Source: Escherichia coli (GTDB taxonomy: Bacteria; Pseudomonadota; Gammaproteobacteria; Enterobacterales; Enterobacteriaceae). From it: a stretch of DNA of 64,000 bases. The stretch is taken from assembly GCF_024502345.1 (NCBI RefSeq), contig NZ_JALDNN010000001.1; one strand, 5' to 3'. Shown here in pieces: positions 7,417-63,375 of this stretch; position 1 is the first letter of the stretch; each line of letters opens with the position of its first letter. Below the pieces are notes generated by a model that was not told where the DNA came from, searched no databases, and saw only the letters and a program-made list of their open reading frames with translations. Made by a program: the position numbers and the translations under genes.

Positions 7417-8718
7417 ATGGCGCAATTCTACTCTGCAAAACGACGCACGACGACGCGTCAGATCATAACCGTTTCAGTCAACGACCTCGACTCTTTTGGT
7501 CAGGGCGTGGCGCGACATAACGGCAAAACGTTATTTATCCCCGGATTATTGCCGCAGGAAAACGCGGAAGTTGCTGTTACTGAAGATAAAAAACAGTATG
7601 CCCGCGCTAAAGTCGTACGCCGGTTAAGCGATAGCCCGGAACGCGAAACGCCACGCTGTCCTCATTTTGGCGTATGCGGCGGCTGTCAGCAACAACACGC
7701 CAGCGTGGATTTACAGCAGCGAAGCAAAAGTGCGGCACTCGCCCGATTAATGAAACACGATGTCTCTGAAGTGATCGCCGATGTTCCCTGGGGCTATCGC
7801 CGCCGCGCGCGTTTAAGTCTGAACTACTTACCGAAAACACAGCAACTTCAGATGGGGTTTCGCAAAGCGGGCTCCAGTGACATTGTCGACGTTAAACAAT
7901 GCCCCATTTTAGTGCCCCAACTTGAAGCATTGCTGCCCAAAGTCAGGCCATGCCTGGGCAGCTTACAAGTTATGCGCCATCTTGGTCATGTTGAACTGGT
8001 ACAGGCAACCAGCGGCACGCTGATGATTTTGCGCCATACCGCACCGCTAAGTTCGGCAGATCGCGAAAAACTGGAACGCTTTTCGCATTCTGAAGGCCTG
8101 GATCTGTATCTCGCCCCCGATAGTGAGATACTCGAAACCGTCTCTGGTGAGATGCCCTGGTATGACTCAAACGGGTTGCGCTTAACTTTTAGCCCGCGCG
8201 ATTTTATTCAGGTCAATGCGGGTGTGAACCAAAAAATGGTAGCGCGTGCGTTGGAATGGCTGGATGTGCAACCTGAAGATCGCGTACTGGATCTGTTCTG
8301 CGGTATGGGCAACTTTACACTGCCATTGGCGAAACAAGCAGCCAGTGTGGTCGGTGTAGAAGGTGTTCCGGCGCTGGTGGAAAAAGGCCAGCAGAATGCG
8401 CGTCTTAATGGTTTACAGAATGTGACGTTTTATCACGAAAATCTTGAAGAAGATGTCACAAAGCAGCCGTGGGCGAAAAACGGCTTCGATAAAGTGTTGC
8501 TGGACCCGGCGCGAGCAGGTGCCGCAGGTGTTATGCAGCAAATTATAAAACTGGAACCTATTCGTATAGTTTATGTATCCTGTAACCCTGCAACGCTGGC
8601 TCGGGATAGCGAAGCGTTATTAAAAGCAGGATATACCATTGCGCGACTGGCGATGCTGGATATGTTCCCACACACGGGACATCTGGAATCGATGGTACTT
8701 TTCTCGCGCGTTAAATAG
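7417..8718 (+). CDS. rlmD: 23S rRNA (uracil1939-C5)-methyltransferase
   Basis: 433-aa ORF with N-terminal TRAM-like region, CxxC cluster and SAM-methyltransferase fold motif ([10 protein letters not shown]); divergent from barA. Confidence 0.9.
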
Positions 8719-16998: not shown

Positions 16999-17670
16999 AT
17001 GCAGTACCCGATTAACGAGATGTTCCAGACCCTGCAAGGTGAGGGTTACTTTACCGGCGTCCCCGCCATTTTTATTCGTTTACAGGGATGCCCGGTTGGC
17101 TGTGCCTGGTGCGACACCAAACACACCTGGGAAAAGCTTGAGGATCGGGAAGTCTCCCTTTTCAGCATTCTGGCGAAGACCAAAGAGAGTGATAAGTGGG
17201 GGGCGGCGAGCAGTGAAGACTTGTTGGCTGTCATTAGTCGCCAGGGATACACCGCGCGGCATGTGGTGATTACGGGTGGTGAGCCTTGCATTCATGATTT
17301 GCTACCACTGACTGATCTGCTCGAAAAGAACGGTTTTAGCTGCCAGATCGAAACCAGTGGTACTCATGAGGTACGCTGCACACCGAATACCTGGGTTACC
17401 GTATCACCAAAGCTGAACATGCGCGGCGGCTATGAAGTGTTGTCACAGGCACTGGAGCGAGCCAACGAAATCAAGCATCCAGTGGGGCGCGTACGTGATA
17501 TTGAAGCACTGGATGAACTACTGGCAACGCTGACCGATGATAAACCGCGAGTCATTGCACTGCAGCCGATTAGCCAAAAGGATGATGCCACACGTTTGTG
17601 CATTGAAACCTGCATTGCGCGTAATTGGCGTTTGTCGATGCAAACACATAAATATCTAAATATTGCCTGA
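16999..17670 (+). CDS. queE: 7-carboxy-7-deazaguanine synthase (radical SAM)
   Basis: 223-aa ORF with the unusual radical-SAM cysteine cluster CxxxxxxxxxxxxxCxxC (CPVGCAWCDTKH). Confidence 0.88.
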   Translation: MQYPINEMFQTLQGEGYFTGVPAIFIRLQGCPVGCAWCDTKHTWEKLEDREVSLFSILAKTKESDKWGAASSEDLLAVISRQGYTARHVVITGGEPCIHDLLPLTDLLEKNGFSCQIETSGTHEVRCTPNTWVTVSPKLNMRGGYEVLSQALERANEIKHPVGRVRDIEALDELLATLTDDKPRVIALQPISQKDDATRLCIETCIARNWRLSMQTHKYLNIA

Positions 17671-18009
17671 TTAAACATTTATAAGCGTTATAAATGGGTG
17701 GAACCTGTAAAGACTTCTACTCATTTATATTGTTTGTCGCCTCTGAAAACTCCTCCATTTTACCCATCCAGGGCTAATCATTAGCATTCTCTACAAATTC
17801 TGTGGCATTAATTTTTCGCTGGAGTGAAAATTATTGCGGTAAAGTTTGGTAGATTTTAGTTTGTATAGAGTTATTTTAAATATTTACCTTTTTAATCAAT
17901 GGATTAAGTGCTCTTTAACATAATGGATGTGTTGTTTGTGTGATACTATAAAGTTGGTAGATTGTGACTGGCTTAAAAAATCATTAATTAATAATAGGTT
18001 ATGTTTAGA

Positions 18010-18832
18010 GTGTTCCCCGCGCCAGCGGGGATAAACCGCGCGATTTGTTAGCGCCCGTTGCGCCTGGTGGGTGTTCCCCGCGCCAGCGGGGATAAACCGC
18101 GCGAGTTCGTGCGCATGGGGCGCATTTTTGGCGTGTTCCCCGCGCCAGCGGGGATAAACCGCGGCGTTCATGCCCTCCAGCACTGTTACGCGGGTGTTCC
18201 CCGCGCCAGCGGGGATAAACCGTAGTCAAGCGGTAATTCATCGCCTGCAGATCCGAGTTCCCCGCGCCAGCGGGGATAAACCGGCTAATTTACGTAATTT
18301 ACGTGCTATTGCACTGAGTTCCCCGCGCCAGCGGGGATAAACCGTGGGTCATGCCGGTGATCGCCTGCCCGTCGTGGAGTTCCCCGCGCCAGCGGGGATA
18401 AACCATCACCACCGCTTGTCATAAAATTAGCGTCATAGAGTTCCCCGCGCCAGCGGGGATAAACCGGGGAGTGGCACTTCTGGGGTAGCGGCGGCCCTGA
18501 GTTCCCCGCGCCAGCGGGGATAAACCGTCAACGCGCTCAGACGTTGCGTGAGTGAACCAGAGTTCCCCGCGCCAGCGGGGATAAACCGAAATATCCAGGG
18601 CTGGGCTGGAGGCAGACGGCGAGTTCCCCGCGCCAGCGGGGATAAACCGGCGTTGATGTTCTTGCGGGTGTTGCAAATATTGAGTTCCCCGCGCCAGCGG
18701 GGATAAACCGTTTCAGCAGTTCAGCGTAACACCGACGGTCACGAGTTCCCCGCGCCAGCGGGGATAAACCGCCCGGAATGCATTCTGAAGGTTTGCTGTA
18801 TATGAGTTCCCCGCGCCAGCGGGGATAAACCA
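18010..18832 (+). CRISPR. type I-E CRISPR array, 14 repeats and 13 spacers, leader on the low-coordinate side
   Basis: 29-bp repeat G(T/A)GTTCCCCGCGCCAGCGGGGATAAACCG at 18010, 18071, 18133, 18194, 18255, 18316, 18377, 18438, 18499, 18560, 18621, 18682, 18743, 18804; spacers 32 bp (one of 33). Confidence 0.97.
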
Positions 18833-19286
18833 CCATATAACCCGTTATCTCTTTCTCAAGTTTTTATATTAGCAGTACTTGTAATAAGCAACATATCCAC
18901 GTAACACCTCATGTTCAAAATAGTTCTCCATGCCAGAGAGGTTCACAATTATCGATACAAAAAATTAAATTTAATCAAAGTGTTATTTGTATGACTCTTA
19001 AATCGTTAAGAAATTTTAATCTATTATTTTTTTAATATTGAATTAATGCCTGTTAATTTTTTCTTTAGAATAACAGTATATTTTTTAAGCTTGTTATTCA
19101 TTGGTTAAGTAATAAATCTGGAAGTTTGTCTTTGTTTTGAGGCTAATGAGTGGTTTTACATAACCGCCTCTATACGCTGTTGATGAATAGTTCTTATGAA
19201 TAAAGATATCCAGTTCATACTTTAAGTGAAAATTGATAAAGTGCGATTCGTATTGTCTTTAATTCTAAAGACATCGAGTGTAGTTA

Positions 19287-19424
19287 ATATTCCTTGTAAA
19301 AACAGGGATAAACCGAACTAGTTAAAGTTTTTATTATGTTCCCTGCATCAGCGGGGATAAACCGGACTTGTTATCATTTTTTAAGTTGTCGAACTTATGT
19401 TCCCCGCGTCAGCGGGGATAACCA
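19287..19424 (+). CRISPR. degenerate CRISPR remnant (2-3 eroded repeats)
   Basis: cagggataaaccg (19303-19315), atgttccctgcatcagcggggataaaccg (19336-19364), atgttccccgcgtcagcggggataacca (19397-19424); one 20-bp and one 32-bp interval. Confidence 0.65.
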
Positions 19425-19437
19425 TTTAGGTATGTTC

Positions 19438-19463
19438 AGGCCGGGCAGTTTTCCGCCCGGCCT
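19438..19463 (-). terminator. GC-rich hairpin just downstream of ygcE
   Basis: aggccgggc-agttttcc-gcccggcct stem-loop; weak U-tract. Confidence 0.35.
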
Positions 19464-19470
19464 ACCTCAT

Positions 19471-20949
19471 TCACGCATTCGACCAGCTCTGGATCGAATC
19501 CACATTCCCCAATTCCCCATGCATCACTTCATACGATTTTTTCAGGATCACATCAGTATGTTTGGTTAGGTCTTTGAAAATGCCTTTATTCATCGCGTCG
19601 TAGCGTTTGGCATTGCTCTCAATCGGTATAAAGATATCTTTCACGCGAACCATCTTATCAACAGCCGTTGCGTAATCCGGGTATAGCCCCAGACCTACCG
19701 CTGTATTAATCGCTGCTCCCAGACTTGCACAACCGTTAATGGCGTTACGGCGTGCCGGAAGGTTGAACACGTCGGCAAAAATTTGCATAAACAGATCGCT
19801 GTTCGAACCGCCGCCAGTAATGATCACATGCTTCGCAAAGTGATTCATTTCATTACACATATTGTCGTAATTGTTCTTCAGCGTTAGCGCCACGCTTTCC
19901 AATATCGAACGATATATCCATGCGTAATCCATGCTGGAATCAAAGCCGATCATAATCCCGCGTTTGTACGGTTCCCACGGATTGGTCAGCCAGTCCAGCA
20001 CCGTCATCAGCCCATTACAGCCAGGTGGCACACTAGAGGCTTTCTTGTTGAGTAAATCTTCCGGTGAAAGATCCTGCGCCCTGGCATCCTGAATTAACGA
20101 CTCGCCTAACATGTCACGCAGCCAGCTCACCGTCCACATACCTTTGCGAATACCGTAACCTTCATACAGCAATGTTTGCGGAATAGAAGACATAATCGGC
20201 CAGTACGCCACCGGATCTTTCGGCAGTGCTTTGCCGTTCATCATCAATGCGATGTAAGTGCCAAGAGAAATTACCGCAGTTTCATCATCCAGTAATCCGG
20301 CCCCCAGAGCTTCTACCGGTTTATCACTGGTGGTACAAACAACCGGCAGTCCTGCCGGGAAATGTGTCGCCAGTGCGGCTTGTGGTGTGATATGTCCGAG
20401 GACGGTGCCAGGCATTTGCACATCAAACAGCATATGACGGGGGATATTAAACTTATCCATTACCGCAGCATCTTCGCTCCATGCCCAGCTCTTATAATCC
20501 ACCGGCCACTGACCAAAATAGTTGGCGATATTGTCTTTAAACTCGCCGGTTAAGCGATGCGTCAGATAACCCGAAAAAGAGGTGACATACGCCACGTCAG
20601 GATTCGTATGTTCGTAAGGGCGTGTAACGCGTGCATCCTGCCAGCTAATCAACGGCGCAGCTGGCGTGCCGTCGGCTTTCAATAACGCACGGCAGCAACG
20701 GATGGAGCCCAGGCCGATGCCAACAATATCTTCTTTATTCCCGGCAAACTGGCTCATCAAATCGTGACCTGCAAAACATAATGATGCCCATAAATCGTCG
20801 TCAGGATGTTCTGCAGTATCGGCATAAGGCGTGTGCATCGGCTGTAATAAGCCTTTACCTTCGCAAACCACATTACCTTCCAGATCGTACATCACCACTT
20901 TTGTGCTCTGACTTCCGCCATCAATCCCTATGATGTATTTTTTCGACAT
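19471..20949 (-). CDS. ygcE: FGGY-family carbohydrate kinase
   Basis: 492-aa ORF with FGGY kinase N- and C-terminal signatures (IGIDGGSQSTKVV, GGGSNSDLFMQIFADV). Confidence 0.85.
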   Translation of the reverse strand: MSKKYIIGIDGGSQSTKVVMYDLEGNVVCEGKGLLQPMHTPYADTAEHPDDDLWASLCFAGHDLMSQFAGNKEDIVGIGLGSIRCCRALLKADGTPAAPLISWQDARVTRPYEHTNPDVAYVTSFSGYLTHRLTGEFKDNIANYFGQWPVDYKSWAWSEDAAVMDKFNIPRHMLFDVQMPGTVLGHITPQAALATHFPAGLPVVCTTSDKPVEALGAGLLDDETAVISLGTYIALMMNGKALPKDPVAYWPIMSSIPQTLLYEGYGIRKGMWTVSWLRDMLGESLIQDARAQDLSPEDLLNKKASSVPPGCNGLMTVLDWLTNPWEPYKRGIMIGFDSSMDYAWIYRSILESVALTLKNNYDNMCNEMNHFAKHVIITGGGSNSDLFMQIFADVFNLPARRNAINGCASLGAAINTAVGLGLYPDYATAVDKMVRVKDIFIPIESNAKRYDAMNKGIFKDLTKHTDVILKKSYEVMHGELGNVDSIQSWSNA

Positions 20950-35528: not shown

Positions 35529-35681
35529 ATGCTGACAAAATATGCCCTTGTGGCAATCATAGTGCTGTGTTTTACAGTACTGGGATTCACGCTGATGGTA
35601 GGCGACTCGTTGTGTGAGTTGAGTATCAGAGAACGTGGTATGGAGTTTAAGGCTGTTCTCGCTTACGAATCGAAGAAGTAG
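35529..35681 (+). CDS. hokX: Hok/Gef-family type I toxin (small membrane peptide)
   Basis: 50-aa [53 protein letters not shown]: single TM helix plus the family C-terminal pattern SLCEL-IR--G-E--A-LAYES; the symbol is my recollection for this position. Confidence 0.7.
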
Positions 35682-35870: not shown

Positions 35871-38135
<2,265 letters not shown>

Positions 38136-38231
38136 GTTAGACGTTCTTTAAAAATAAGGAAATGTTTTAATTTAGTTGGTAGATTGTTGATGCGGAATAA
38201 ATTTGTTTAAAAACAGTTATGTATGCTTAGT

Positions 38232-38443
38232 GTGTTCCCCGCGCCAGCGGGGATAAACCGGGGCCGACGGTCGCAGTATTGGACCATTTCAAGTGTTCCC
38301 CGCGCCAGCGGGGATAAACCGACTCTTACATGCTTAATCAGATTCTGGCGGATGTGTTCCCCGCGCCAGCGGGGATAAACCGGGCGCACTGGATGCGATG
38401 ATGGATATCACTTAGAATTCCCCGCCCCTGCGGTAGAACTCCC
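38232..38443 (+). CRISPR. short type I-E CRISPR array: 3 intact repeats, 3 spacers and a degenerate terminal repeat
   Basis: GTGTTCCCCGCGCCAGCGGGGATAAACCG at 38232, 38293, 38354; 32-bp spacers; degenerate repeat gaattccccgcccctgcggtagaactccc at 38415-38443; truncated leader 38136-38231. Confidence 0.92.
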
Positions 38444-38463: not shown

Positions 38464-39501
38464 TCAAGACGCCTTCGCCAGCTCCTTCACCAACGGTAGC
38501 ATTATCCGCATAACGTCACGGCAGCGACGTTCTATTCTTCCAGGAAGTGCCTTATCAATATGCTGTTGATTATCCAGTCTTACGTCATGCCAGCTATTTC
38601 CCGCAGGGAATGCGGCTGTTTTTGCGCGTTGCTGATAACCATCCTTATTCCCAAGATTCCAGTTAGTCGCTTCCACCGAAAGTACAGCAATGCCCGCTTT
38701 GTCGAATATTTCTGCGTCATTACAACACCCAGTGCCTTTCGGATAATTTTTATTCAGACTCGGATTGGTCGTTGCGGCTATTCCGTGACTGCGCGCAATT
38801 GCCAGCGCCCTGTCGCGCGTTAATTTCCTTACTGATTCAGGGGTTTTTACACCGCTGTTGAAATACAATTTATCGCCAACAATTAAGTTATCGAGATTAA
38901 TCACCAGCAGCGTATTTTTCTTTTCGGTGTCACTCATCCGCTTGAGTAAATTCTCAGCGCCTAATTTCCCTTCCTCTTCGCCGCTGGTCGCCACAAATCG
39001 AATACCATACTCGGTAGGCGTATTTTTCAGGCGTTCTGCCAGTTCCAGCATGACACCTAAACCTGCGGCGTTATCATCCATTCCTTGTAACGTCAGCCCG
39101 CCGAGATTGGCATCGGCGTCAGCATCGCTCAGCGGGGCGTAAGTATCCAGATGCGCCATAATGATGATCTGCTGCGGCGCTTTGCCTTCATGAGCGGCAA
39201 TCACCGTACTTCCCGTCACGTTATGCCAGCTCTTACGATTATCGCGGGCGGTATAAATATACCGACTATTAAATGTCCGAATATCACTGCGATAACCCAT
39301 TTGCTGAAACTGTTGGCGAATATAATCGGCAGATAACATTTCTGCAGGAGTTCCGGTCATGCGTCCCGGAAAGAAAGTAGCAATATGTCGTGCCTGAGTA
39401 TTAGCAAAATCGCCAGGTTTAGGTGACGAGGCGTGTACGGGGAGAATAAAGCATACGCCGAGCGCCAGGGCAGCGGTACGGTGGCGCAATGCGGAAAACA
39501 T
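38464..39501 (-). CDS. iap: alkaline phosphatase isozyme conversion aminopeptidase
   Basis: 345-aa ORF with signal peptide and M28-type metallopeptidase features; position next to the array and cysD. Confidence 0.88.
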   Translation of the reverse strand: MFSALRHRTAALALGVCFILPVHASSPKPGDFANTQARHIATFFPGRMTGTPAEMLSADYIRQQFQQMGYRSDIRTFNSRYIYTARDNRKSWHNVTGSTVIAAHEGKAPQQIIIMAHLDTYAPLSDADADANLGGLTLQGMDDNAAGLGVMLELAERLKNTPTEYGIRFVATSGEEEGKLGAENLLKRMSDTEKKNTLLVINLDNLIVGDKLYFNSGVKTPESVRKLTRDRALAIARSHGIAATTNPSLNKNYPKGTGCCNDAEIFDKAGIAVLSVEATNWNLGNKDGYQQRAKTAAFPAGNSWHDVRLDNQQHIDKALPGRIERRCRDVMRIMLPLVKELAKAS

Positions 39502-50197: not shown

Positions 50198-50791
50198 ATG
50201 AAACTGATCGTCGGGATGACAGGGGCTACCGGTGCGCCTCTTGGTGTGGCATTACTGCAAGCGCTGCGGGAGATGCCGAATGTCGAGACTCATCTGGTGA
50301 TGTCGAAGTGGGCGAAAACCACCATTGAACTGGAAACGCCTTACAGCGCCCGCGATGTTGCTGCCCTCGCTGACTTCAGCCATAACCCGGCGGATCAGGC
50401 GGCGACCATCTCCTCAGGTTCCTTTCGTACCGACGGCATGATCGTTATTCCGTGCAGTATGAAAACGCTCGCCGGTATCCGCGCTGGTTACGCTGATGGC
50501 CTGGTAGGGCGCGCGGCGGACGTCGTGCTCAAAGAAGGCCGCAAACTGGTGCTGGTGCCGCGTGAAATGCCGCTTAGCACCATCCATCTCGAAAATATGC
50601 TCGCACTTTCACGCATGGGCGTGGCGATGGTGCCGCCGATGCCTGCCTTTTATAACCATCCCGAAACGGTAGATGACATTGTCCACCATGTAGTAGCCCG
50701 CGTGCTGGATCAATTTGGCCTCGAACATCCCCACGCCAGGCGCTGGCAAGGATTGCCGCAGGCCGGGAATTTTTCTCAGGAGAATGAATAA
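50198..50791 (+). CDS. UbiX-like flavin prenyltransferase (decarboxylase subunit B)
   Basis: 197-aa ORF, MKLIVGMTGATGAPLG start, flavoprotein fold. Confidence 0.85.
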   Translation: MKLIVGMTGATGAPLGVALLQALREMPNVETHLVMSKWAKTTIELETPYSARDVAALADFSHNPADQAATISSGSFRTDGMIVIPCSMKTLAGIRAGYADGLVGRAADVVLKEGRKLVLVPREMPLSTIHLENMLALSRMGVAMVPPMPAFYNHPETVDDIVHHVVARVLDQFGLEHPHARRWQGLPQAGNFSQENE

Positions 50792-52217
50792 TGGCATTTG
50801 ATGATTTACGCAGCTTTTTACAGGCGCTTGATGACCACGGCCAGTTACTGAAAATCAGCGAAGAGGTGAACGCGGAACCGGATCTGGCTGCCGCTGCCAA
50901 CGCCACCGGGCGTATCGGCGATGGTGCACCGGCGCTGTGGTTTGATAATATTCGCGGTTTTACCGATGCCCGCGTGGCGATGAATACCATCGGTTCCTGG
51001 CAGAACCACGCGATTTCCCTCGGCCTGCCGCCAAACACTCCGGTCAAAAAGCAGATTGATGAGTTTATCCGCCGCTGGGATAACTTCCCGATTGCCCCGG
51101 AGCGCCGCGCCAATCCTGCCTGGGCGCAGAACACCGTTGATAGCGACGAGATTAACCTGTTCGATATCCTGCCGCTGTTTCGTTTAAACGATGGCGATGG
51201 CGGTTTCTATCTCGACAAAGCGTGCGTGGTTTCCCGCGATCCGCTCGACCCAGATAACTTCGGCAAGCAGAACGTCGGCATCTACCGCATGGAAGTGAAG
51301 GGCAAGCGTAAGCTCGGCCTGCAACCGGTGCCGATGCACGATATCGCCCTGCATCTGCATAAAGCAGAAGAGCGCGGTGAAGATCTGCCGATTGCGATCA
51401 CGCTCGGTAACGATCCGATCATCACGCTGATGGGGGCCACGCCGCTGAAATACGATCAGTCTGAGTATGAAATGGCAGGCGCGCTGCGTGAAAGCCCGTA
51501 CCCGATCGCCACCGCCCCGCTGACCGGTTTTGATGTGCCGTGGGGTTCAGAAGTGATCCTCGAAGGGGTCATCAAAAGCCGTAAACGCGAAATCGAGGGG
51601 CCGTTCGGTGAGTTTACCGGGCACTACTCCGGCGGGCGTAACATGACCGTGGTGCGTATCGATAAAGTCTCTTACCGCACCAGGCCGATTTTCGAATCGC
51701 TGTACCTCGGCATGCCGTGGACCGAAATCGACTACCTGATGGGGCCAGCCACCTGCGTACCGCTGTATCAACAACTGAAAGCCGAGTTCCCGGAAGTGCA
51801 GGCGGTAAACGCCATGTACACCCACGGCCTGCTGGCGATTATCTCCACCAAAAAACGCTACGGCGGCTTTGCCCGCGGGTGGGCCTGCGTGCGATGACCA
51901 CGCCGCACGGTCTGGGCTACGTAAAGATGGTGATTATGGTCGATGAAGACGTTGACCCGTTCAACCTGCCGCAGGTGATGTGGGCGCTCTCCTCGAAAGT
52001 GAACCCGGCAGGGGATTTGGTGCAGTTGCCGAATATGTCCGTGCTGGAACTCGACCCAGGCTCAAGCCCGGCAGGGATCACCGACAAGCTGATTATCGAC
52101 GCCACCACGCCTGTTGCCCCGGACAACCGTGGTCACTACAGCCAGCCGGTGGTGGATTTGCCGGAAACCAAAGCCTGGGCTGAAAAACTGACCACTATGC
52201 TGGCTGCACGTAAATAA
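50791..52217 (+). pseudogene. UbiD-family decarboxylase (subunit C) interrupted by a frameshift near 51874-51879
   Basis: Two overlapping track ORFs (50791-51897 and 51717-52217) in different frames together span about 475 codons; the frame switches between GGFAR and VGLRAMTTPHGLGYVKM. Confidence 0.7.
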
Positions 52218-62073: not shown

Positions 62074-63375
62074 GTGCATGATAACGGAGTCTTTATGGCA
62101 GGAAAACAAGAGGGAAAGCCACTTTCGTTTAAAGGGGTAGAAATGATGAAGCCAGGCGATAAAGATAAGGCTGATGTAGGCGAAAATCGTGGCTTACGTG
62201 TCTCCTGTGGTGCAACTGGTGTTAAGTCTTTTTTCTACCGTTACACAAGTCCTCTGACTGGCAAACTTGCTCAGGTTAAAATTGGTAACTTCCCGCAGAC
62301 TTCTCTCGCCGCTGCACGTCTTAAACTTCATGAATTAAAGCTCCTCCGGCAGGAAGGTCGGTGCCCTGCGTCAGAGCTTAAGCAAGATAAGCTCCAGCGT
62401 GCGATTGAAGCTGAACAGGCTAAGATCCCTGAATTGACCGTACAGGGATTAGTTGAACTGTATCTTACTGAACGTATTGAGGATCGTAAAACGAAGGACG
62501 GGAAGGTCATTCCCGGTGCCAGAAAACCGAAAGGACAGGCTGAGGTTCGTCGTACTCTCTATGGTGACGCTGTTAAAAGTTTAGGAACCCGGAATGCTGC
62601 TGAGATAACGCGCCAGGATGTTATTAATTTAATCAATGGCATTGTAGCTCGGGGCGCAACCGTACAGGCAGGGAATGTACTGAGAGAACTTTCACTCGCA
62701 TATGAATTTGCAATTGGACTTGGGCGCTTTGATGACAGTTTTGCGAATCCAGCGCTGTTAGCAAAATCTAGCTTACGACAGACCAGAATCAAGCTCACAA
62801 ATGGACGTGGAACACGAGTACTGAGTGAGGACGAGCTTGCAAAATTCCTTAAATGGCTACCGGGTTCGGCTTACACGCCAACGATCAAAAACGTGTTACG
62901 TCTGACTCTCTGGACCGGGTGTCGTACCGGTGAAGTCTGCAATATGGCATGGAAGGATGTTGATCTTGAAAAAGGCACCATTCATCTTAGAGAAACCAAG
63001 ACTGGAGTAGAGCGTTACGTTCAGTTATCGGATCAAGCGATCGACTTTCTCAAGGTTCTACGCCTTACCTCTGACAAATATCTATTCCCTTCACAAGCCA
63101 CTAAAAAGCCAATCCAGCAGAAGTATCTAACTGAAAACTCATGGCGTTTACGTGAAAGCGGTCAAATGCTTGATATACCTCATTGGACGCCGCATGATCT
63201 GCGTCGTACAGTACGAACGGGCTTATCTCGTTTGCAGTGTCCAAATGAGGTGGCTGAGGCCGTATTGGGGCATACACGAGGCGGTGTTGAAGGGATTTAT
63301 AATCTGTATAAGTATGATGCTGAGTGTAGGAAGTGGTTGCAGGTGTGGGCGGATTATTTAGATACTTTAACGTAA
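62074..63375 (+). CDS. int: tyrosine-type site-specific integrase (P4-like)
   Basis: N-terminal arm-binding pattern KPGDKDK...GLRV...RY; C-terminal catalytic HDLRRT and LGHTRGGVEGIYNLY; the true start may be a downstream Met. Confidence 0.85.
   Translation: MHDNGVFMAGKQEGKPLSFKGVEMMKPGDKDKADVGENRGLRVSCGATGVKSFFYRYTSPLTGKLAQVKIGNFPQTSLAAARLKLHELKLLRQEGRCPASELKQDKLQRAIEAEQAKIPELTVQGLVELYLTERIEDRKTKDGKVIPGARKPKGQAEVRRTLYGDAVKSLGTRNAAEITRQDVINLINGIVARGATVQAGNVLRELSLAYEFAIGLGRFDDSFANPALLAKSSLRQTRIKLTNGRGTRVLSEDELAKFLKWLPGSAYTPTIKNVLRLTLWTGCRTGEVCNMAWKDVDLEKGTIHLRETKTGVERYVQLSDQAIDFLKVLRLTSDKYLFPSQATKKPIQQKYLTENSWRLRESGQMLDIPHWTPHDLRRTVRTGLSRLQCPNEVAEAVLGHTRGGVEGIYNLYKYDAECRKWLQVWADYLDTLT

Follow-up and report, generated by a model that had tools for sequence, protein, structure and literature searches.

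The window, that is, the whole 64-kb stretch of Escherichia coli DNA analysed here, contains a CRISPR array of 14 repeats and 13 spacers at 18010..18832 on the forward strand. To its left lie queE (ygcF; 16999..17670, forward strand; NCBIfam TIGR04322 QueE, E=4.7e-111) and an AT-rich leader of 339 nt (leader2.3; 17671..18009, forward strand), which ends in TTTAGA directly before the first repeat. To its right, a CRISPR2.2 remnant (19287..19425, forward strand) with degenerate repeats at 19336 and 19397 and a weaker one at 19287 is followed by ygcE (19471..20949, reverse strand), which encodes an FGGY-family sugar kinase as judged from its matches to FGGY kinase families. Both anchor genes are annotated under these names, queE and ygcE, in E. 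coli genomes. The location between ygcE and ygcF (queE), the presence of leader2.3 and the CRISPR2.2 remnant approximately 0.5 kb downstream correspond to the CRISPR-II locus, in which CRISPR2.3 with its leader and CRISPR2.2 lie 0.5 kb apart between ygcE and ygcF (Almendros et al. 2014, PMC3903273). By position and sequence, the array is assignable to E. coli CRISPR-II (CRISPR2.3) in its species-standard position.

The 29-nt repeat consensus of the CRISPR2.3 array, G[T/A]GTTCCCCGCGCCAGCGGGGATAAACC[G/A], conforms to the type I-E (E. coli 'type 2') repeat consensus GWGTTCCCCGCGCCAGCGGGGATAAACCG with its period of 61 nt. Repeats start at 18010, 18071, 18133, 18194, 18255, 18316, 18377, 18438, 18499, 18560, 18621, 18682, 18743 and 18804, the final one ending at 18832, and their spacing of 61 nt is interrupted by a single 62-nt step arising from spacer 2, which has 33 nt; the other 12 spacers have 32 nt, and all 13 are distinct. 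The 26-nt repeat core is free of mismatches in 14 of 14 copies, and matches to the repeat at up to 3 mismatches number 19 in the window versus 0 in 100 shuffles. Repeats 1-4 start with GTG and repeats 5-14 with GAG, and the final G is replaced by A in repeat 7 and in the terminal repeat. A hairpin with a 7-bp stem and a 4-nt loop is predicted by folding of the repeat (-15.1 kcal/mol, z = -3.6), and the predicted fold has the form of the Cas6e stem-loop of type I-E repeats. A search of 17000-20000 against Rfam at gathering thresholds returned no match, so that the repeats received no separate family assignment from this source. All features that define type I-E arrays, and all those that define CRISPR-II of E. 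coli, are present in the array. The initial annotation had described a 14-repeat I-E array at 18010-18832 with 13 spacers, including a 33-nt spacer 2, and a recognisable leader; the coordinates were reproduced together with the perfect 26-nt core, every spacer string is identical to the sequence, and the leader is the 339-nt AT-rich leader2.3 found in K-12.

Leader2.3 has a G+C content of 30% versus 51% for the window, is identical to the CRISPR2 leader of K-12 MG1655 (339/339 positions) and differs from that of NCTC9064 at 5 positions. One perfect copy of the IHF-type consensus AATCAATGGATTA, identified as a consensus match only, is located at 17894-17906. Because a promoter and terminator scan of 17600-19500 returned sites no commoner than expected by chance, the case for a functional leader rests on identity to the K-12 leader and not on a predicted promoter. 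Leaders of CRISPR2.3 have been described as similar across strains, including those without cas-E (PMC3903273). The K-12 CRISPR-II locus shares with the window the flanking genes, the complete leader, the CRISPR2.2 remnant with its spacer (GACTTGTTATCATTTTTTAAGTTGTCGAACTT, which like the repeats of the remnant is identical in K-12 and NCTC9064), the downstream flank (18833-19425, 99.7% identity), a terminal repeat ending in A and a distance of ~17 kb to the position of cas3. In contrast, the K-12 array contains 6 spacers instead of 13, none of them in common with the window, and its repeats are of the GTG type save the last, whereas the older repeats of the window are of the GAG variant; furthermore, K-12 possesses the full distant cas operon that has been deleted in the window. 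Overall, the best identity of the window sequence among 5,426 complete E. coli genomes is 98.2% over 15.8 kb, and identity to K-12 amounts to 96.4-97.7%.

The end of the array at 18832 is separated by 17.0 kb from the start of a cas3-derived open reading frame (ORF) at 35874 and by 19.4 kb from a second array. In K-12, which encodes a complete cas operon, the CRISPR2 array lies ~16.8 kb from cas3; since such a distance is normal, missing adjacent cas genes are no proof of an orphan. The cas-E genes of E. coli have been described at cysH-iap only (PMC3903273), and orphan status in Escherichia should be read from the state of cysH-iap and not from the array-cas distance. The array had been called an orphan with no cas genes nearby: its stranded state is upheld by the cas-operon deletion at cysH-iap, whereas the reason given is not, remoteness being normal. 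The 'cas3' used as a landmark gene in the initial annotation also required revision, as 35874-38135 is not an intact gene and instead encodes a truncated cas3'-'cas2 chimera.

This cas3'-'cas2e chimeric ORF of 753 aa (35874..38135, forward strand) was identified by NCBIfam profiles, PADLOC and tblastn. It covers positions 4-665 of 878 of the NCBIfam Cas3 profile and 20-87 of 87 of the Cas2e profile, and PADLOC called it as Cas3e plus Cas2e. The Cas3 part comprises residues 1-679 of 886, including the HD nuclease and most of the helicase, with ~207 C-terminal residues gone, and the Cas2e part comprises residues ~20-94 without the N-terminus. At the junction (...GGTCAGTTA|CTGGAAGTG..., 37910/37911), which was mapped using PE164 (intact cas3 3' end) and PS3Tanimalfeces2 (intact cas2) as references, cas3 codon ~679 is joined in frame to cas2 codon ~20 with a microhomology of at most 2 nt. 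As judged from these breakpoints, a single deletion removed the end of cas3, cse1, cse2, cas7, cas5, cas6e, cas1 and the start of cas2. Searches of the 64-kb window by tblastn with eight K-12 Cas proteins and the E1-variant Cas3, CasA, Cas6e, Cas1e and Cas2e (E1 Cse2, Cas7 and Cas5 were left out of the query set) identified no further Cas proteins besides the chimera. None of the Cascade genes cse1, cse2, cas7, cas5 and cas6e was found in the window, and their canonical site is deleted; the adaptation module is likewise missing from the window, with no match to Cas1 and no full-length Cas2, and in place of a full-length Cas3 with HD nuclease, helicase and C-terminal domain only residues 1-679 of 886 are encoded. 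Cognate cas genes are thus absent from the window, including cysH-iap, and the window does not qualify as a complete I-E system, for which Cascade, Cas1 and full-length Cas3 are lacking.

In tblastn comparisons, the cas3 remnant is 95% identical to Cas3 of E1 (O157 type), the common variant outside K-12, and 31% identical to K-12 Cas3. Between cysH and cas3, the window encodes a Hok/Gef toxin of 50 aa (hok; 35529..35681, forward strand; identified from its translation), and a PF01848 HOK_GEF gene occupies the equivalent place in another locus (L005); the presence of hok-sok has been tied to the cas-E variant (PMC3903273). Together, hok and the GTG-type CRISPR1 repeats and leader fit an E1/O157-type, non-K-12 arrangement (PMC3903273, PMC3737337). 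The leader of CRISPR2.1, the array of the CRISPR-I locus, is retained (38136..38231, forward strand); it aligns with the K-12 CRISPR1 leader and leader-repeat junction and adjoins the 3' end of cas2 as in intact loci. It is followed by a CRISPR2.1 remnant (38232..38443, forward strand) that consists of 3 spacers, 3 perfect repeats of the GTG type and a terminal repeat (38415-38443) that is degenerate and, like the last spacer, shared with K-12, and by iap (38464..39501, reverse strand; NCBIfam NF007568, E=5.5e-212), the right anchor of CRISPR-I. In two other loci with an identical chimera (L006 and L007), the CRISPR1 array has 10 spacers against 2 in the window and opens with these two, so that the window differs from them by the loss of leader-distal units only.

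As a type of immune relic, the cas-less E. coli chromosome that retains CRISPR2.3 and its intact leader is well known. Like BL21(-AI) and the cas-lacking groups described previously (Almendros et al. 2014; PMC12736100), the window combines an intact-leader array with the loss of the cas-E operon, and as in BL21 and its kin, spacer uptake would be expected only with Cas1-Cas2 supplied. In contrast to BL21, in which both the CRISPR2.1 leader and the cas genes are described as lost, the window has kept the CRISPR2.1 leader as well as the 5' part of cas3 and the 3' part of cas2 in one in-frame ORF. Published partial operons have been reported to retain cas1, cas2 and cas3 in every case (PMC12736100), which the window does not. 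The locus documents one more I-E switch-off in E. coli, by a single in-frame cas3-cas2 deletion with both leaders and arrays kept, and its significance beyond such bookkeeping is small.

The spacers of CRISPR2.3 provide a record of its descent. At least one of the 13 spacers occurs in 368 of the 5,426 complete E. coli genomes, in a CRISPR feature each time among the matches listed. Spacers 4-13 belong to the group found in those 368 genomes, and sharing rises toward the leader-distal end, a trend previously described for E. coli (PMC3903273); these ten spacers were probably inherited from this group, which is widespread in E. coli. For spacers 1-3, neither the arrays nor the prophages of the 5,426 complete E. 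coli genomes contain a near-exact match, and among the loci fetched these three are shared with L066 (GCA_002543795.1) only; spacer 1 gave no match in a scan of one genome per GTDB species, and spacer 7 is confined to the window among the loci compared. L066 was brought up by a search with YgcE, QueE and YgcG, although as retrieval markers these proteins are too widespread to single out the lineage. NCTC9064 has eight spacers in common with the window in the same order, and ML775, NCTC13148 and several others contain subsets of the window's spacers. These three strains and GCA_002543795.1 share the spacer order and the leader-distal anchor formed by spacers 8-13, and GCA_002543795.1 additionally has spacers 1-3 and the leader of the window and switches from GTG to GAG repeats at the same position. 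The arrays of this group differ in the internal spacers that each has lost, and NCTC9064, ML775 and NCTC13148 differ further in having another leader allele (...TTTACA) and GAG repeats only. The suggestion that the spacer set is a lineage marker was thus borne out, with spacers shared in conserved order across the 368 genomes and most widely at the leader-distal end, and the spacer set together with the position of the GTG-to-GAG switch is usable as a fine lineage marker.

The leader of L066 is identical to that of the window, and its array likewise switches to GAG after four GTG repeats. The spacers of L066 comprise, in order, spacers 1-5 of the window, three extra spacers, spacer 6, one extra spacer and spacers 8-13, and all four extra spacers are present in NCTC9064 with their relative order kept. 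The window and L066 thus represent different subsets of one larger ancestral array. Compared at the CRISPR2 locus, their contents support a history in which neither array has gained spacers at the leader end since the two diverged and in which both have undergone internal losses only.

GAG-type arrays of this spacer group carry the TTTACA leader allele, which has 5-7 differences from the leader of the window, and the GTG-then-GAG pattern is also found in many unrelated arrays with a TTTAGA leader. Integration of a spacer duplicates the repeat next to the leader, and the run of four GTG repeats therefore marks a change at the leader end. Two origins of this change are equally possible: the leader end may have been exchanged by recombination, with three acquisitions afterwards, or spacers 1-3 may have been imported together with the leader. 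Simple mutation is an unlikely source of the GTG repeats, since the difference from GAG-type arrays of this spacer group extends over the entire leader allele (5-6 positions). A/T repeat variants have been linked to leader and cas variants (PMC3737337). Spacers 1-3 would have been added last, presumably while an O157-type (E1) cas-E was still present.

It is very probable that CRISPR2.3 of the window is an inactive, cis-competent immune memory that was stranded by the cas3-cas2 deletion at the distant cas operon. In complete strains, the type I-E operon at cysH-iap, ~17 kb away, serves CRISPR2.3 in trans: Cas1-Cas2 insert spacers at the leader end, Cas6e cuts the transcript at the repeat hairpins, and the resulting crRNAs are then used by Cascade and Cas3. 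Here, the deletion that joins cas3 codon ~679 to cas2 codon ~20 has removed or truncated these Cas proteins. Following the established type I-E pathway (PMC4499155, PMC3737337), the lack of Cas1 and the truncation of Cas2 imply that new spacers would no longer be integrated, and the lack of Cas6e and Cascade that a transcript would be neither processed nor used. With its leader intact, the array is perhaps still transcribed; this transcript would not be loaded, neither interference nor acquisition would take place, and the array would now alter solely through the loss of repeat-spacer units. The earlier proposal that the array is probably frozen is well supported by the state of cysH-iap, which holds the cas3'-'cas2 chimera only, and by the absence of Cascade and cas1 from the window.

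According to the account of Yosef et al. given in PMC3737337, CRISPR2.3 of the cas-less strain BL21-AI, the standard host for such expansion, expands when provided with plasmid-borne Cas1-Cas2, and by this precedent we infer that the window's array would be cis-competent as well. The same observation on an orphan CRISPR2.3 lends some plausibility to an array that works still, with Cascade, Cas3 and Cas1-Cas2 supplied by a cas operon that lies on a plasmid or at another site of the genome. Normal strains already use this array in trans at a distance (PMC3903273), a few E. coli plasmid records contain I-E-type repeats, and the leader and all repeat cores of the window are intact, a state of preservation that could mean either that the cas genes were lost recently or that the array is still in use. 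We nevertheless regard a working array as very unlikely, as cas-E has been described only at cysH-iap, which is deleted here, the other E. coli system, I-F, has different repeats (PMC3903273), and the window and L066 show losses without new leader-end spacers since their divergence.

Retention of the array for a Cas-free role, e.g. as a regulatory or structural RNA or DNA element, would be in keeping with the perfect repeats of the window, with the conservation of the CRISPR2.3 leader in strains without cas-E (PMC3903273) and with the common occurrence of cas-less strain groups that keep their arrays (PMC12736100). However, the spacers are not conserved and undergo lineage-specific unit loss, which would be unexpected for a sequence-specific function, and a self-target check identified no spacer with a second copy or near-match inside the window. 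Recent cas loss and repeat homogenisation can account for the conservation of the repeats, and a Cas-free role is therefore considered very unlikely.

Consistent with a stranded immune memory, the description of the array as a record of past encounters is supported by spacers 3 and 6, which match temperate-phage genes with an ATG PAM. Spacer 6 agrees in 29 of its 32 nt with sb44, a PAPS-reductase/DNA-methyltransferase-like gene of Salmonella phage ST64B; the mismatches (positions 25-27) fall outside the seed. This target is also present in ST64B-like prophages, and its protospacer was found in 45 IMG/VR contigs, 43 of which have the ATG PAM. Spacer 3 is identical over 32/32 positions to a protospacer with an ATG PAM on an IMG/VR viral contig, located in a 178-aa phage ORF of unassigned function. 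The leader-proximal protospacer flanks of both spacers thus conform to the AWG motif. The PAM typical of the O157-type variant is ATG, given as CAT in the publication, and it was never sampled by the K-12 variant (PMC3737337); the ATG PAMs observed here agree with the O157-type variant of the window's cas3 remnant. As a rule, E. coli spacers have been reported to be directed against temperate phages (PMC10910852).

Within the phage collection, the match of spacer 6 is the sole credible protospacer match of the whole array, and the plasmid collection yielded no credible protospacer for any spacer; the sensitivity of these searches was estimated to extend to ~3 mismatches. Neither collection yielded a match for the eleven spacers other than 3 and 6, and the first 24 nt of spacers 1, 2, 4, 5 and 7 had none in IMG/VR. 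Other phage and plasmid matches were rejected: most fall in CRISPR arrays of records that are mislabelled or chromosomal, and a few are weak alignments at chance level.

The breakpoint of the cas deletion recurs in other genomes. A 120-nt probe spanning the junction matched end to end in 19 of the 5,426 complete E. coli genomes. Two of these, 23CRST035 and NCTC13148, have the exact junction of the window with an open 753-aa ORF, and the other 17 (E. coli 1303 group) share the cas3 breakpoint but keep 8 further nt of cas2, which places cas2 out of frame. In the 19 genomes, the cas3 breakpoint is associated with four unrelated CRISPR1 arrays, and the CRISPR1 arrays beside the junction alleles have no spacer in common with the window's lineage. 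Beyond these genomes, public contigs that encode the exact 753-aa chimera number at least 16, some of them from human gut metagenomes, and in the assembly GCA_050022275.1 both CRISPR loci lie on a single 88.7-kb contig. In the junction alleles, the cas3 part forms a mosaic of blocks with 100% identity to the window and blocks with 88-94% identity; recombination has evidently patched the allele, which is therefore not datable from its divergence. The shared breakpoints reflect either common descent with recombination or a hotspot. A ratio of synonymous to non-synonymous differences of 30:33 in the chimera versus 73:40 between intact alleles was initially considered as a sign of relaxed selection and was dropped, as the differences lie in recombination blocks.

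The open in-frame ORF in the window and in two complete genomes, with a cas3 part that is ~96% identical, and the occurrence of the exact protein on the additional contigs, gut metagenomes included, could be taken as signs of selection for a functional Cas3-Cas2 protein of 753 aa, on account of which the arrays would be kept. This explanation is extremely improbable. The chimera lacks the C-terminal ~207 residues of Cas3 and the N-terminus of Cas2 and has no Cascade to recruit it, cas2 is out of frame in the 17 genomes with the same cas3 breakpoint and 8 extra nt, and the divergence, being a recombination mosaic, is uninformative on constraint. A broader scenario combines a deletion hotspot or a recombination-spread 'cas-off' allele with an in-frame chimera kept for a function, which may be that of a Cascade-independent nuclease/helicase or of a dominant-negative factor against incoming I-E systems; it is highly improbable. 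A hotspot or a spreading allele, if true, would bear on the question of why many E. coli lineages lose CRISPR immunity.

The mildly unusual feature of the locus is the recurrent cas3'-'cas2 breakpoint together with the persisting open chimeric ORF. Further independent internal deletions of the cas region and IS insertions were observed in other strains, which fits the decay of cas-E in published accounts (PMC3903273, PMC12736100). A different deletion is present in PE164, in which cse2 is fused to cas2 (cse2'-'cas2) at the same cas2 end point.

The window carries an in-frame cas3'-'cas2 chimera (35874-38135; junction 37910/37911), which joins Cas3 residues 1-679 to Cas2 residues ~20-94. Its cas3 breakpoint recurs in 19 of 5,426 complete E. 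coli genomes. The identical in-frame junction is present in two of them, and the remaining 17 retain eight extra cas2 nucleotides, which places cas2 out of frame in these genomes. The cas3 part of the same-breakpoint alleles is a recombination mosaic, and no spacer was common to the window's lineage and the CRISPR1 arrays adjoining these alleles in the 19 of 5,426 genomes. A distinct internal deletion, cse2'-'cas2, was identified in E. coli PE164 (L013, ~7630-7640). The PE164 and window deletions have the same cas2 end point (...GGTTA/CTGGAAGTG), which may reflect either a deletion hotspot or stepwise descent.

The CRISPR1 remnant located 3' of the chimera (38232-38443) contains three spacers, including the conserved terminal spacer. 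Two relatives encoding the identical chimera (L006 and L007) possess 10 CRISPR1 spacers ahead of the conserved terminal one, the first two of which correspond to the two additional spacers of the window, indicating that eight CRISPR1 units were lost in the latter.

The leader of the CRISPR2.3 array contains a putative integration host factor (IHF) site at 17894-17906, approximately 104-116 nt upstream of the first repeat, which perfectly matches the consensus WATCARNNNNTTR (AATCAATGGATTA) and is assigned by this consensus match only. Repeat 7 of the array (18377-18405) ends in A instead of G. As the last base of a repeat is a copy of the last PAM position at the source of the adjoining spacer, spacer 7 (18406-18437), which was absent from all other arrays examined, was probably derived from a protospacer whose PAM did not end in G. 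Among the CRISPR2.3 arrays of other E. coli (L065-L096), many of those with a ...TTTAGA leader combine leader-proximal GTG repeats with leader-distal GAG repeats, and those with a ...TTTACA leader contain GAG repeats throughout. The GTG/GAG switch point serves as a built-in time marker in CRISPR2.3 arrays.

Type I-E CRISPR arrays of Escherichia or Salmonella make up all or part of several records catalogued as phages in the phage collection (OR845838.1, OR851156.1, OR851017.1, OR851230.1 and AGRM01000002.1). These records probably represent fragments of host DNA, and a search with any I-E array can yield false 'phage hits' to them. Furthermore, NZ_CP107157.1 (96 kb) and NZ_LC542972.1 (294 kb), both recorded as E. 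coli plasmids, contain stretches of I-E-type repeats; if these are genuine, arrays or cas modules could travel between strains via plasmids.

The rpoS-mutS variable region of the window encodes a vdcB/ubiX-like gene followed by a split vdcC/ubiD-like gene (50198-52217). The latter comprises two overlapping ORFs of 368 and 166 amino acids, which cover profile positions 2-362 and 360-466, respectively, and is probably a frameshifted pseudogene. Directly past mutS, a tyrosine integrase of 433 amino acids (62074-63375) suggests that the right edge of the window holds the start of an integrated element. The window flanks share 96.4-97.7% identity with K-12 and at best 98.2% with any of the 5,426 complete E. 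coli genomes; the source is an Escherichia lineage without a close representative among these genomes.
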